From a virus (taxonomy: Duplodnaviria; Heunggongvirae; Uroviricota; Caudoviricetes): a stretch of 64,000 bases of DNA. Shown here piece by piece: positions 23,483 through 64,000 of the stretch (within the stretch, counting starts at the first letter, position 1; every line of letters begins with the position of its first letter). The stretch covers positions 94,276 to 158,275 of the IMG/VR virus record IMGVR_UViG_3300031994_000015; one strand, 5' to 3'. The notes under the pieces were generated by a model that saw only the letters and a list, made by a program, of their open reading frames with translations, was not told the DNA's origin and did not search any database. The position numbers and the translations under genes were made by a program.

Positions 23483-23644
23483 ATGGAATATAGAGGTATT
23501 AAAGCATCAGAGCTTATAAAAGAATTAAAAAAATATATTGGGCAATTTGGGGATTTGTATGTCTACAAAGAAAAAAATGGAGATGTACGCCCAATTTTCT
23601 TTTTGAATCATTACCCAAATACAGATTATTTTGAATTAGTATGA
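23483..23644 (+). CDS. hypothetical small protein (53 aa, MEYRGIKASELIKELKKYIGQFGDLY...)
   Basis: Below the track threshold; stop overlaps the start of 23641 (ATGA). Confidence 0.3.
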   Translation: MEYRGIKASELIKELKKYIGQFGDLYVYKEKNGDVRPIFFLNHYPNTDYFELV

Positions 23645-24258
23645 AATCTTTACAATTATATTTAATTGAAAACCAATCACATATAGATGATTTTATTCAA
23701 TTTCTTTCAGATAATTCTAAAGAAGGAGAATTAAAAACAAATCATAAGTCATATTACGATTATTATAATGAATGCAATCCATTTGATAATCCAAAATTTT
23801 CTCAAAATATAGATAATACATGTTATGGGGAAGATTATTGTGAAGAACATGAGTTAGATTCTGTATTTGATGATGAAGAGAATTTTATTGAATATATTAA
23901 AGATATAGTTGATGAACAATTAACATTAGATTTAGAAAGAGGTTTGATTAAAATTGAAAGAGTCATATCTTTAGACTCTTCATTTTCTAAATATAAAGGT
24001 AATATTGGTATATATTGGACTTATATTGAAGGAATGGGTGATTCTCATGGCGCAGTAGGAAGTTCGAGAAATAATATTACAATATGCGCATTAGTTGATC
24101 CAAAAGATGTTAATTGGGAAGAAACAATAGCAGCTAATATAATTGATCCAGATGAATATGAATTGACATTAAATGAAGATGCTCCTATTCAAATTACTAA
24201 AATATTAGATGTAAATAGAAAAGAAATATTCAAAGAAAACTTATTATATAAAGCATGA
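23641..24258 (+). CDS. hypothetical protein carrying the N-terminal tag (MKSLQLYLIEN)
   Basis: 205-aa ORF; first member of tagged array 1. Confidence 0.55.
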   Translation: MKSLQLYLIENQSHIDDFIQFLSDNSKEGELKTNHKSYYDYYNECNPFDNPKFSQNIDNTCYGEDYCEEHELDSVFDDEENFIEYIKDIVDEQLTLDLERGLIKIERVISLDSSFSKYKGNIGIYWTYIEGMGDSHGAVGSSRNNITICALVDPKDVNWEETIAANIIDPDEYELTLNEDAPIQITKILDVNRKEIFKENLLYKA

Positions 24259-24899
24259 AATCATTACAAGTATATATAATAGAGAGCATTAAAAAATTAC
24301 CTGAATCAATTAAAGGGTTGATTGTATTTGATATTGATGATACAATATTAAAAGTTGACCCTTCTTTGATGAAAGTATATAAACAAGAACCTGGCAAACC
24401 AGAAGTATCATTAACCACTGAAGAATTTGCTAAAGATCCAGATGCTGAAGATGAAGAGAAAAGAAAATGGTTTGATTATAGAGATTTTAGAGATCCAGTA
24501 AAAGTATATAATTCTATTATTACAGGTACTCCACTTATTAAGAACTTGAAAATAATGGATGACTATATTAAAGCTGGATATGATTTTTGTTTCTTGACAG
24601 CTCGTGGGTGTGAAGATGTTATTAAGAAAGCTATTGGGGATTTCTTGAAATTTAGAGATAAAGATGGTGCATTAAAGGAACTTGGTGATTCATTTAAGAA
24701 AACTTTTTCACATGCAGTAAATGATGAAATCAAAACATATCCTGGTAAGACAGATGCTGAAAAGAAAGGTAATGTTCTTAAAAAACTTTGTAAAGAATAT
24801 GATAGAGTGGTATTTGTAGATGATGATAAGAAAAATGTTAATGCTGCTCGTGAATTAAATATAAAAAATTTAAAGGTTATTAAAGCTTGGGAAGATTAA
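24255..24899 (+). CDS. HAD-superfamily phosphatase carrying the N-terminal tag (MKSLQVYIIES)
   Basis: HAD motifs: I = FDIDDT (DxDxT), II = FLTAR, IV = VFVDDD. Confidence 0.65.
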   Translation: MKSLQVYIIESIKKLPESIKGLIVFDIDDTILKVDPSLMKVYKQEPGKPEVSLTTEEFAKDPDAEDEEKRKWFDYRDFRDPVKVYNSIITGTPLIKNLKIMDDYIKAGYDFCFLTARGCEDVIKKAIGDFLKFRDKDGALKELGDSFKKTFSHAVNDEIKTYPGKTDAEKKGNVLKKLCKEYDRVVFVDDDKKNVNAARELNIKNLKVIKAWED

Positions 24900-24900
24900 T

Positions 24901-62884: not shown

Positions 62885-63424
62885 ATGAAAGATATTAAAA
62901 CATACATAAATGAAGCAAAGAAACCAGCACCTAAAAAAGAATATCCTATGAAAAAGAAAGAAACTTATGGAGAATTAGGTGAGAAATGGTTTGATAAATG
63001 TAGAAACTTTGCTACAGCTGGAAGTACACAATGGACCAAATATGGCATTAACGACTTTAAAGGATTCTTAGAAGATATGGAAAAGGAATTTGATCCACCT
63101 AAAGATAGTACAATTGCAACAAATCGTTGGGAAATGTGTAAAGCGCTTAAGGATGGAAATTTGAAAGAATTTGTCAAAATCGCTGAAGATAAACATATTG
63201 ATAAGTTTACTTATGGTGCATTTATGTCTGAACATGTGTATGGTTCATATTTCTTAGATACTTATATGCTTCTTAGAACTTATGAATATGTTCTTGATGG
63301 CAATTTAATTATTCGTAATGGTATATTAAATGCAATTTGGAGAATTGATGATACTGATAATTGGTATGATAAATTTATTCCTGAAATACATAAATTAGAA
63401 AAACAAGTTCCTGGACATAAATAA
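62885..63424 (+). CDS. tagged protein (MKDIKTYINEA)
   Basis: Track ORF 62873 trimmed to the ATG that begins the tag. Confidence 0.5.
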   Translation: MKDIKTYINEAKKPAPKKEYPMKKKETYGELGEKWFDKCRNFATAGSTQWTKYGINDFKGFLEDMEKEFDPPKDSTIATNRWEMCKALKDGNLKEFVKIAEDKHIDKFTYGAFMSEHVYGSYFLDTYMLLRTYEYVLDGNLIIRNGILNAIWRIDDTDNWYDKFIPEIHKLEKQVPGHK

Positions 63425-63445
63425 TAAAAATATATTGATAATAAA

Positions 63446-63802
63446 ATGAAAGACATTAAAGAATATATATTAGAATCTCAAGATACTAGTTTTTCTTGCA
63501 ATATTTCACAAGTAGAAAGTGGCAAACGCAATGATGCTTTCTTATTTAAGAAAATTCAAAAATCATTAGAATCTAAAAAAGATACACATATTTCAGTTGA
63601 TTGTGGAAAAGCTGGTGTATGCGAAATTGAATTTACTAATTTCAACAATAATGTCTGCGACATAAGTATGAGATTAAAAGATCTTGGAAAATATATGAAA
63701 TTTTCTAAAGAAGTAGATTCTGAATGGACAGATAATGGTTCTTCGAAAGATTTGTATAATACAATGTTGATAGTATTAAGAAATATACAAAGTAAATTAT
63801 AA
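63446..63802 (+). CDS. tagged small protein (MKDIKEYILES)
   Basis: 118-aa ORF. Confidence 0.55.
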   Translation: MKDIKEYILESQDTSFSCNISQVESGKRNDAFLFKKIQKSLESKKDTHISVDCGKAGVCEIEFTNFNNNVCDISMRLKDLGKYMKFSKEVDSEWTDNGSSKDLYNTMLIVLRNIQSKL

Positions 63803-64000
63803 TGAAAGATATAGTTAGATTTATAAATGAAGCTAAGCAATCAACACCATCTGTAAATTTCGAAGAATTTAAGGATGAAATTGATGCTTTGAATGAAAAG
63901 TTAAAATCTTACACATTTGCAGTATTTGATGATGAAGGTGAACATTTATATGTTCGCGATAAAGATTCAAAGAAATGGTATACAGCATTGCCAGATAAGT
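63802..64000 (+). CDS. tagged small protein (MKDIVRFINEA), partial at the window end
   Basis: ORF starts at the ATGA overlap and runs off the window. Confidence 0.45.
   Translation, partial: MKDIVRFINEAKQSTPSVNFEEFKDEIDALNEKLKSYTFAVFDDEGEHLYVRDKDSKKWYTALPDK

Follow-up and report, generated by a model that had tools for sequence, protein, structure and literature searches.

The window analysed here is a 64,000-nucleotide stretch of a virus of the Caudoviricetes (IMG/VR record IMGVR_UViG_3300031994_000015, positions 94,276–158,275; GC content 28%), and it carries two plus-strand arrays of genes whose otherwise unrelated products begin with a common leader of ten residues, M-K-x-[IL]-x-x-[YFW]-[IL]-x-E, referred to below as the tag. 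A six-frame scan with the pattern M-x-x-[ILV]-x-x-[YFW..]-[ILV]-x-E finds the tag in 28 places on the plus strand and in one place, probably by chance, on the minus strand. Eight of the 28 are gene starts in array 1 (23641–30463), 15 are gene starts in array 2, which begins at 57269, two are the starts of isolated genes and three are internal, in-frame copies (Table 1). The preliminary description of this DNA, made by reading the sequence alone, had reported 23 tagged proteins in two plus-strand arrays, and all 23 were found where it had placed them; the five additional copies are the internal ones at 25474, 25525 and 28856 and the isolated genes at 4092 and 11376. Array 2 is not complete within the window: on its parent contig (ENA ERZ27257205 k141_878836, 140.9 kb), five more tagged genes bring it to 20 consecutive ones before a membrane protein, a methylase and PolB mark its end. 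In all, 28 of 31 consecutive array genes start with the tag. Genes within the arrays abut or overlap. The leader varies a little in length, being one residue longer at 27914 (MKNLKQYILFES, ending ...YILFES) and shorter at 57269 (MKKITSILES).

Such a concentration is far beyond chance. A strict form of the motif gives 23 six-frame matches in the window, compared with 0.48 expected and a maximum of two in 50 first-order Markov (Markov-1) simulations, and none in 100 kb of control phage DNA of similar GC content (Lak-A1 and LR756500). The other 44 gene-like open reading frames (ORFs) of the window have no tag; they include those for the major capsid protein (MCP), the sheath and the tube, and all of the replication genes on the minus strand. 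An all-against-all BLASTP comparison of the bodies of the tagged proteins gave no significant pair, which agrees with the earlier view that these bodies are unrelated. Simple paralogy is ruled out by the unrelated folds and by this empty comparison. A signal peptide or membrane anchor is ruled out on inspection, the leader being amphipathic and charged, with no hydrophobic core.

Conservation of the tag is at the level of the protein. Information content was computed on the 31 consecutive array N-termini with no motif filter; it peaks at positions 1, 2, 4, 7, 8 and 10 (2.2–2.8 bits beyond the Met), takes intermediate values at 3, 9 and 11, and beyond residue 11–12 is no higher than background. 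Position 8 is Ile or Leu in 28 of these N-termini, position 10 is Glu in 27, and position 11 is Ser, Ala or Gly in 21. The same positions stand out in natural populations. The ParB-like gene at 61082 was compared in 120 natural variants of at least 92% identity. Hypervariability is seen at positions 2, 3 and 6 of its tag, where the minor-allele fractions are 0.53, 0.30 and 0.51 compared with a mean of 0.043 for the protein; position 4 is restricted to Ile or Leu, and Tyr7, Ile8 and Glu10 are invariant. Synonymous codons within the tag match genome-wide usage (for Glu, GAA:GAG is 23:3, against 22.9:3.1 expected), ATT, ATA and ATC all occur for Ile, and residue 7 alternates between Tyr, Phe and Trp. 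The codon check thus upholds the claim that the conservation is not that of a nucleotide repeat. Deviation from genomic codon usage is confined to a slight surplus of A-ending codons close to the start, with codon 2 being AAA in 24 of 24 cases.

The preliminary description had also drawn attention to the T4 capsid-targeting sequence (CTS), MKTYQEFIAE (PMC8442874), and here the resemblance proves to be detailed. According to the part of PMC9026906 that summarises mutagenesis of the CTS of T4 internal protein IPIII (Mullaney and Black 1996), targeting depends chiefly on residues 4 and 7, and processing on residues 8 and 10. These four positions are the very ones that, Met and Lys apart, are conserved in the tags. 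When the T4 CTS is scored against a profile built from 140 tags, one of 2192 Met-started control decamers scores as high, placing the T4 sequence in the top 0.05%; one ParB-like homolog begins MRQYTDFIFE, with the T4-like Tyr at position 4. The two systems have in common a ten-residue leader of the form M-K-x-hydrophobic-x-x-aromatic-I-x-E, a cleavage motif in which (L/I)-x-E precedes a small residue, and a genome that encodes both an S77 protease of the gp21 family and a capsid protein of the gp23 family; in both, the leader is found on otherwise unrelated proteins in variable loci. In T-even phages the internal proteins are likewise diverse defence proteins with the CTS alone in common (PMC3012670). 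There are differences, however. About 30 tagged genes occur in ~75 kb here, whereas T4 has three internal proteins plus a few others; recognisable enzymes and a sigma-like factor are among the cargo, which is not basic; Ile or Leu takes the place of Tyr at position 4; and some tags stand within a protein or behind a domain. C-terminal propeptides are known from T4 Alt and gp21 as well (PMC9026906).

The capsid protein itself (38929–40674) belongs to the gp23 family (Pfam Gp23, E 2.8e-31) and is 32–39% identical to the MCPs of Sphingomonas (Sphingobacterium) phage PAU (33%), Tenacibaculum phages pT24 and PTm1, Chryseobacterium phages MA9V-1 and MA9V-2, the Lak megaphages and LR756500. The same phage is plentiful in metagenomes, with related contigs of up to 366 and 461 kb, and a megablast search with a 20 kb query found no GenBank phage relative at the DNA level. 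It is a huge (contig of at least 460 kb), uncultured phage of low GC content that belongs with the PAU/Tenacibaculum/Lak group and is distant from the Tevenvirinae. No Shine-Dalgarno-like sequence was seen upstream of the tagged genes, an absence consistent with a Bacteroidota host, like the hosts of its relatives. No tRNA gene was found anywhere in the window.

The enzyme presumed to remove the tag is encoded just upstream of the capsid gene, at 37107. This ORF had been proposed as a putative protease/scaffold gene, and the comparison with gp21 bears this out, its N-terminal domain being that of a T4 gp21-family protease. It matches Pfam Peptidase_S77 with E 1.3e-11 (score 44.9, curated cut-off 27) and phrog_207, 'head maturation protease', with 9.7e-43; in an alignment to the T4 gp21 crystal chain 5JBL its GELEHP pairs with GELNAP and its ISSRG with VASRG, and we take these motifs to mark the catalytic His and Ser positions. 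Peptidase_S80 scores 19.7 bits, below its cut-off of 23.4 and weaker than S77. This bears on the phages phiKZ and SPN3US, which resemble the present phage in that dozens of different head-packaged proteins are cut after Glu (S/A-x-E), some of them enzymes, such as the virion RNA polymerase, that are carried pre-made. Their propeptides, however, are individual and ~80–130 residues long, whereas here there is a common 10-mer, and their protease is of the S80 type and their capsid of another lineage. The present phage does not fit a phiKZ-type propeptide/S80 system.

The end of the tag recurs at the places where a prohead protease would be expected to cut (in the sequences that follow, an arrow stands after the Glu of the motif). 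The IHE sites noted earlier in the capsid propeptide are present, as AIHEIHES. The core of the scaffold repeats in the protease ORF, W-[VI]-x-E, resembles tag positions 7–10; in these repeats (W-[VI]-x-E-E) a Glu occupies P1', and the single strict site in the scaffold is YVVES. The same repeats, at 38106–38390, produced a spurious Pfam match to 'Trp_leader1'. MA9V-1 has over 20 [FILVY]-x-N-E-[SA] sites in its protease-scaffold polyprotein of 1347 residues and ...RWSEFINE↓AAPK in its MCP, and three small ORFs adjoining its head genes start MKNFFSFINEA, MKTFTCFINEA and MKNFFVNEA. PTm1 has WILES and SYINES in its fusion protein and GGIINE↓S in its MCP, and the LR756500 MCP starts MIKLINE↓A. T4 itself (NC_000866) has MLKEQLIAE↓A and 15 more sites in gp22, SFLTE↓A in gp23 and MAKINELLRE↓S in gp24. 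In PAU the mature MCP, as defined by N-terminal sequencing, keeps 520 of its 585 residues (PMC5646251), a length that puts the cut at most one residue from A-L-M-E(64). We conclude from these sequences that the tag end, [YFW]-I-x-E-[SAG], is probably the protease site used across the phage group.

How widely the leader itself is shared is a separate matter. MA9V-1 and PTm1 have a fused S77 protease-scaffold ORF like that at 37107, and their [FY]-I-N-E-[SA] motif, which equals the tag end in the window, is repeated in the scaffold and found also in the MCP propeptide. Large arrays are found in neither, however; the three small ORFs near the MA9V-1 head genes are tagged, with none in the PTm1 region examined. 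Tagged ORFs of MA9V-1 include MA9V1_126, MA9V1_146 and MA9V1_150; the paper on this phage gives sodium dodecyl sulphate polyacrylamide gel electrophoresis only. No tagged ORF occurs in the 50 kb around the capsid gene in each of Lak-A1, LR756500 and PTm1, so that arrays are not universal in the group. PAU gives a different picture. Within 50 kb of its head genes, among those for portal, protease and MCP, 16 ORFs start with MKT[IL]xxL[YF]E[AS], and one further tagged ORF lies in its first 50 kb, the counts covering 100 of 219 kb. Among the tagged PAU ORFs are gp114, gp131–133, gp142–146, gp149, gp150 and gp152–154. The PAU record carries the notes 'scaffolding' on the tagged gp152 and 'internal capsid protein' on the tagged gp142 and gp154. 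PAU thus resembles the present phage in its gp23-type MCP, its gp21-type protease and its tagged ORFs with such notes; it differs in a leader one residue shorter and in having its tagged genes interspersed with head genes rather than in long separate arrays. PAU gp1 (NC_019521, 94–1182), annotated as 'RNA polymerase sigma factor', bears the note 'internal capsid vertex protein (mango) subunit 2', and the sigma-like ORF at 57269 has weak colinear similarity to it. Two other PAU products have related notes (NC_019521, 2027–4333 and 4439–6070), gp10 'mango subunit 1' and gp9 'capsid decoration protein (banana)'. Densities under the PAU vertices were mentioned by Hua et al. 2017 and deferred to a future paper; the structural work behind the mango and banana notes appears to be unpublished.

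The arrays are also linked to the head genes by their upstream sequences. The 15-mer TTATTTTTAWTAAAT has exactly five copies in the window, all on the plus strand and all intergenic, upstream of ORF 3232 (followed by the tagged gene at 4092), the protease, the MCP, the sheath and array 2. With up to one mismatch allowed there are eight matches, compared with 1.32 expected, and variants are found ahead of both the tube gene and array 1. A second box, AAATAMYAAATATAT, follows it at 23456, 37078, 38897, 40852 and 44251 (array 1, protease, MCP, sheath and tube). In three related loci (L012, L018 and L019) the box is kept upstream of the sigma-like orthologs or arrays, at a protein identity of 44–48%. 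The shared boxes, the hairpins that bracket array 1 and the abutting or overlapping genes make each array look like a single transcription unit with a promoter of the virion-gene type.

Tagged arrays are not confined to this phage. A DNA pattern for the tag identified 28 IMG/VR loci, on contigs of up to 435 kb with a GC content of 23–29%, most of which have several tagged ORFs in tandem. The same pattern gave 36 isolated matches and no array in 596 Gb of bacterial genomes, which makes the arrays specific to phages. Looser DNA patterns added a few extra arrays (L068 and others) in IMG/VR; the matches listed were mostly single chance ones, and 178 of 230 loci had no tagged ORF. Sorted by body, the 142 tagged proteins sampled form 84 families, 58 of them singletons, and syntenic relatives differ strongly in the content of their arrays. 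Pfam assigns a minority of the sampled proteins: six with DUF285 repeats, four HAD proteins, three AAA_33 kinases, and one protein each for NDK, NUDIX, GNAT, AAA ATPase and nucleotidyltransferase. Some of the tagged DUF285 proteins (BspA-like leucine-rich repeats) are tandem paralogs (L003, 8059–10521; L002, 12844–13779; L015, 3246–4184); their leaders continue ...E-K-L-x-I, and this EKLxI sub-type recurs in several contigs.

Two of the tagged proteins show that the tag is separable from the body it accompanies. Homologs of the ParB-like 61082 protein outside the clade have no counterpart to its first 15–30 residues, that of Microcystis phage Mel-JY01 starting at the equivalent of residue 16–20. 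Among 150 diverse representatives the leader is present in about half of the 50 closest, and the distant ones either lack it or are embedded in larger proteins; the leader is an add-on to the ParB-like body. Another recurrent leader (...RFQQLAGLLTE, MQRLAGIISE, LSKLAGLLKE) is seen in the distant homologs P0188, P0190, P0215, P0224 and P0245, and such a leader, ending in [LI][LI]xE, may be the CTS of other T4-like clades. The cytidylyltransferase, represented in the window by the fusion ORF at 24901, is the converse case. This enzyme has its active-site HxGH motif at the very N-terminus, and no N-terminal tag in any of the four genomes compared; in all four the domain is directly followed by a tag (MKSIRQYISE, MMALKDYIIE, MTLKEYIIE or MISLKEYITE), with a different body or a stop codon thereafter. 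The post-domain tag is kept across 28–47% identity, and its placement implies that the tag is a protein module independent of translation initiation. Likewise, the 96-residue part of the 27914 ORF is a free-standing tagged ORF in another locus (L004), so that the internal tag at 28856 marks a gene fusion. At 6293–6610 in L004 a leader is followed by the remnant of a second one (MKSLNQYIIENKDFQQSFNESQDKYF...), which, with the tandem tags at 25474 and 25525, looks like a footprint of recombination within tags.

The products encoded in the window (Table 1) are mostly small proteins, with a few recognisable enzymes. Two of the functions first proposed, a HAD phosphatase (24255) and a Pnk-like kinase (29957), are confirmed by Pfam. 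Of the two nucleotidyltransferases, that at 27914 stands and that at 26934 has no family match. The sigma factor label at 57269 is supported by PHROG alone, there being no Pfam match at E ≤0.01 and no sequence match in the PDB. Orthologs of this sigma-like protein start MKKITEA, MKKITEG or MKSLTQIKEA, and the shortened leader still ends in I-x-E followed by Ala, Gly or Ser. The calculated pI of the tagged cargo ranges from 4.3 to 9.3, and its net charge from −25 to +6.

Table 1. Tagged genes, internal tags and associated features of the window, in order of position.
Positions	Strand	Feature	Length (aa)	Leader or tag	Remarks
4092–4436	+	isolated tagged gene	114	MKNLNIYLQEG	upstream of 2115-aa ORF
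11376–11795	+	isolated tagged gene	139	MKEISQWLFEH	nucleoside diphosphate kinase; Pfam NDK 2e-17
23430–23470	+	box variant TTATTATTTTTAATTATAAAT and second box AAATAACAAATATAT (23456–23470)			upstream of array 1
23641–24258	+	tagged gene, array 1	205	MKSLQLYLIEN	very acidic body, net charge −25; no family found
24255–24899	+	tagged gene, array 1	214	MKSLQVYIIES	HAD phosphatase, Pnk-phosphatase-like; Pfam Hydrolase 1.7e-8; phrog_415
24901–26898	+	fusion ORF, array 1	665		cytidylyltransferase-like domain with no N-terminal tag, two tandem internal tags, 457-aa body (phrog_1462)
25474–25503	+	internal tag 1		MKSIRQYISE	conserved C-terminal tag of cytidylyltransferase domain
25525–25554	+	internal tag 2		MKSIIQYITE	leader of fused downstream body
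26934–27908	+	tagged gene, array 1	324	MQSIKTWIIES	no family match; nucleotidyltransferase label unconfirmed
27914–29146	+	tagged gene, array 1	410	MKNLKQYILFES (variant)	polymerase-beta-type nucleotidyltransferase plus 96-aa tagged protein; Pfam NTP_transf_2 2.8e-5
28856–28885	+	internal tag 3		MKSLNNYINE	heads 96-aa part of 27914 ORF
29148–29348	+	tagged gene, array 1	66	MKQITKYINES	
29366–29626	+	tagged gene, array 1	86	MKTIKSFINEA	
29628–29954	+	tagged gene, array 1	108	MKSLNNYINEE	
29957–30463	+	tagged gene, array 1	168	MKSIITYLFEK	P-loop polynucleotide-kinase-like kinase; Pfam AAA_33 1.1e-20; phrog_505
30661–30683	+	terminator-like hairpin			closes array 1; matching hairpin before the array at 23403–23432
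37107–38807	+	prohead protease-scaffold fusion	566		Peptidase S77 (T4 gp21-like) domain, acidic linker, repeat region
38106–38390	+	tandem repeat, 36 bp × 7.9, 85% matches			inside protease-scaffold ORF; eight 12-residue repeats QNW[VI]xEEFAPEV
38929–39054	+	MCP N-terminal propeptide region			starts MFINEN, ends AAIHEIHE↓SQLG (residues 35–43), predicted cleavage site
57129–57143	+	promoter-like box TTATTTTTAATAAAT			upstream of array 2; identical boxes at 3193, 37019 (protease), 38834 (MCP), 40819 (sheath)
57269–58426	+	first gene of array 2	385	MKKITSILES (shortened)	sigma-70-like; phrog_351 5.3e-13
58426–58947	+	tagged gene, array 2	173	MKRLRNYIVES	acidic, net charge −20
58944–59324	+	tagged gene, array 2	126	MKDIVTYITES	
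59342–59695	+	tagged gene, array 2	117	MKDIKNYILEA	
59700–59987	+	tagged gene, array 2	95	MKDIVSKINEV	position 7 is Lys
59984–60202	+	tagged gene, array 2	72	MKDITNFINEG	
60202–60699	+	tagged gene, array 2	165	MKNIDNFILER	
60712–61065	+	tagged gene, array 2	117	MKDITKFINES	
61082–61969	+	tagged gene, array 2	295	MLSLNNYIFES	ParB-like domain
61966–62352	+	tagged gene, array 2	128	MKDIKEYIIEA	
62354–62602	+	tagged gene, array 2	82	MKDLIRTITES	
62626–62871	+	tagged gene, array 2	81	MKDIITTITEA	
62885–63424	+	tagged gene, array 2	179	MKDIKTYINEA	
63446–63802	+	tagged gene, array 2	118	MKDIKEYILES	
63802–64000	+	tagged gene, array 2, cut by window end	188 on full contig	MKDIVRFINEA	

Why would so many unrelated proteins of one phage carry the same ten residues? 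In our view the leader is probably a capsid-targeting and cleavage leader of the T4 type, placed on an unusually large and diverse cargo. On the T4 model the tagged proteins would be made late, alongside the head proteins, and the amphipathic leader, with its hydrophobic residues at positions 4, 7 and 8, would bind the scaffolding core of the prohead so that the protein becomes enclosed. The gp21-family protease (37107) would then cut after [IL]-x-E, at position 10, leaving the mature protein in the head, and the mature cargo would enter the next host cell along with the DNA. Because such a leader is short, modular and position-tolerant, it could have been grafted onto many unrelated bodies, among them enzymes that act on nucleotides and RNA ends, a ParB-like protein, a sigma-like factor and numerous small proteins of no known family; gene fusions at tags would be tolerated, and indeed harmless if the protease cuts there, since it would separate the parts. 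Late expression, core binding, cleavage, packaging, injection and any effector role are all steps that we infer by analogy.

Several observations weigh against this interpretation. The cargo is by calculation neutral to acidic, unlike the highly basic internal proteins of T4; T4 does package non-basic foreign proteins by means of the CTS (PMC9026906), however, so that a non-basic cargo does not exclude such a mechanism. Some of the tagged products are housekeeping-type enzymes (NDK, HAD, cytidylyltransferase) for which a need for pre-made delivery is not obvious. The leader of the sigma-like protein is shortened and degenerate, and the sigma-like gp1 of PAU, annotated as a capsid component, has no tag at all; the basis of the PAU 'internal capsid protein' notes is unpublished. 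No tagged ORF was found near the capsid genes of Lak-A1, LR756500 and PTm1, and the leader is thus not universal, even where the cleavage motif occurs. The scaffold repeats of the window, which carry Glu rather than Ser, Ala or Gly after the motif, may not be cleavage sites.

Other explanations are less likely. The leader could be a docking or co-localisation tag for a non-capsid target (an assembly or replication factory, a hub protein, a host chaperone or protease), with the enzymes acting in the cell that makes them and the resemblance to a protease site partly coincidental. Many of the cargo proteins are indeed metabolic enzymes that would be useful during replication, the cargo is not basic, and its packaging is argued by analogy; but the motif ends exactly at a gp21-type site, conservation is lost directly after it, the same motif is found in capsid propeptides and scaffold proteins, the PAU tags are on a scaffold protein and on ORFs noted as internal capsid proteins, and the arrays share their box with structural genes. 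We therefore regard docking as unlikely. The leader might instead be a propeptide that the protease removes, keeping the protein inactive or timing its processing, rather than a signal for entry into the head. This is rather improbable, given that the T4 gp21 protease is described as acting in the prohead and that positions 4 and 7, the targeting positions of T4, are as conserved as positions 8 and 10, although the cleavage site is the best-supported half of the motif and the short sigma leaders (MKKITE↓A) retain just this half. To our knowledge, gp21-type proteases are active only inside assembled proheads; if the same restriction applies here, cleavage would imply prior enclosure.

The shared N-terminus could also have no function in the protein, having been carried along as genes were inserted by recombination at a conserved 5' cassette joint. 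The rapid turnover of array content among relatives, the hypervariability of the x positions within a population, and the tandem tags, tag remnants and fusions, which resemble recombination footprints, are all in keeping with such hitch-hiking. It would not explain, however, why there is no nucleotide conservation beyond what the amino acids demand, why positions 4, 7, 8 and 10 are kept in 84 families and 120 population variants, or why the tag after the cytidylyltransferase domain persists between such divergent proteins, and we give it little credence. Finally, an A/T-rich, unstructured start or 'downstream box' might aid initiation in a host that does not use Shine-Dalgarno sequences, as the absence of these upstream of the genes, the uniform AAA at codon 2 and the slight enrichment of A-ending codons might suggest. 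Synonymous positions otherwise follow genome usage, though, Tyr, Phe and Trp alternate at position 7, Glu10 is kept with both of its codons, and structural genes that are highly expressed do not have the element. This codon analysis, together with the functional-looking internal copies that have no Met-Lys (MMALKDYIIE and IMTLKEYIIE), leads us to reject a translation or RNA-level element, and the probability that remains for it is very small.

The class of mechanism that a T4-type targeting leader implies is already known from T4, as is the sharing of a CTS by diverse internal proteins in T-even phages; what is unusual here is the scale, the types of cargo and the phage clade. In the literature searched we found no description of such tags in PAU-like, Lak-like or rumen and gut huge phages, or in the PAU/Tenacibaculum/megaphage group as a whole, and no mention of this scale (~30 genes in 75 kb, 84 families in a small sample) or of enzyme and sigma-like cargo with internal and C-terminal tags. 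It is possible, although we propose this more tentatively, that uncultured phages of very large size (contigs up to 460 kb) and low GC content, forming one clade, pre-load and inject dozens of proteins, including a sigma-like factor, enzymes of RNA/DNA-end processing and of nucleotide metabolism, and many small proteins of fast turnover, by means of a portable ten-residue 'zip code', with fused genes processed like polyproteins.

If the tag is a CTS, it labels the injected proteome of an uncultured megaphage in a form readable from sequence, amounting to ~30 proteins here and, in the small clade sample, to 84 body families, and it offers a ready list of candidate host-takeover and anti-defence effectors. 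The T4 CTS would then be an ancient and widely shared device of gp23/gp21-type phages rather than a peculiarity of the T-even group, and the same principle may hold across such phages, each clade having a leader of its own, such as ...QQLAGLLxE. Pre-made delivery could then extend to enzymes and a transcription factor, as it does to the virion RNA polymerase in other giant phages. For phages of Bacteroidota, the tag might also serve as a tool with which to package foreign proteins. PAU and MA9V-1 are cultured relatives with the same system, in which the prediction is directly testable.

Some neighbouring features of the window may be recorded here. Between array 1 and the protease, at 31987–36953, lie genes for a membrane protein (31987), a 694-residue SPFH/Band-7 protein (Pfam 2.6e-21), an acidic protein of 211 residues and a UDP-glucose dehydrogenase (phrog_9148, 1.3e-97), which are not the usual neighbours of head genes. 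Neither Pfam nor PHROG gave a match for the 2115-residue ORF at 4997–11344, which has the isolated tagged gene 4092 on one side and 11376 on the other and is located downstream of a promoter box of the structural type. Another upstream sequence, CTATATTATATATGTAAA(T)AACAAATAA, is shared by ~30740–30790 and ~11850–11885, before the genes at 30797 and 11889, and may represent a second promoter class. On the minus strand, within positions 1–3100, an ORF of at least 1032 residues runs off the start of the window.

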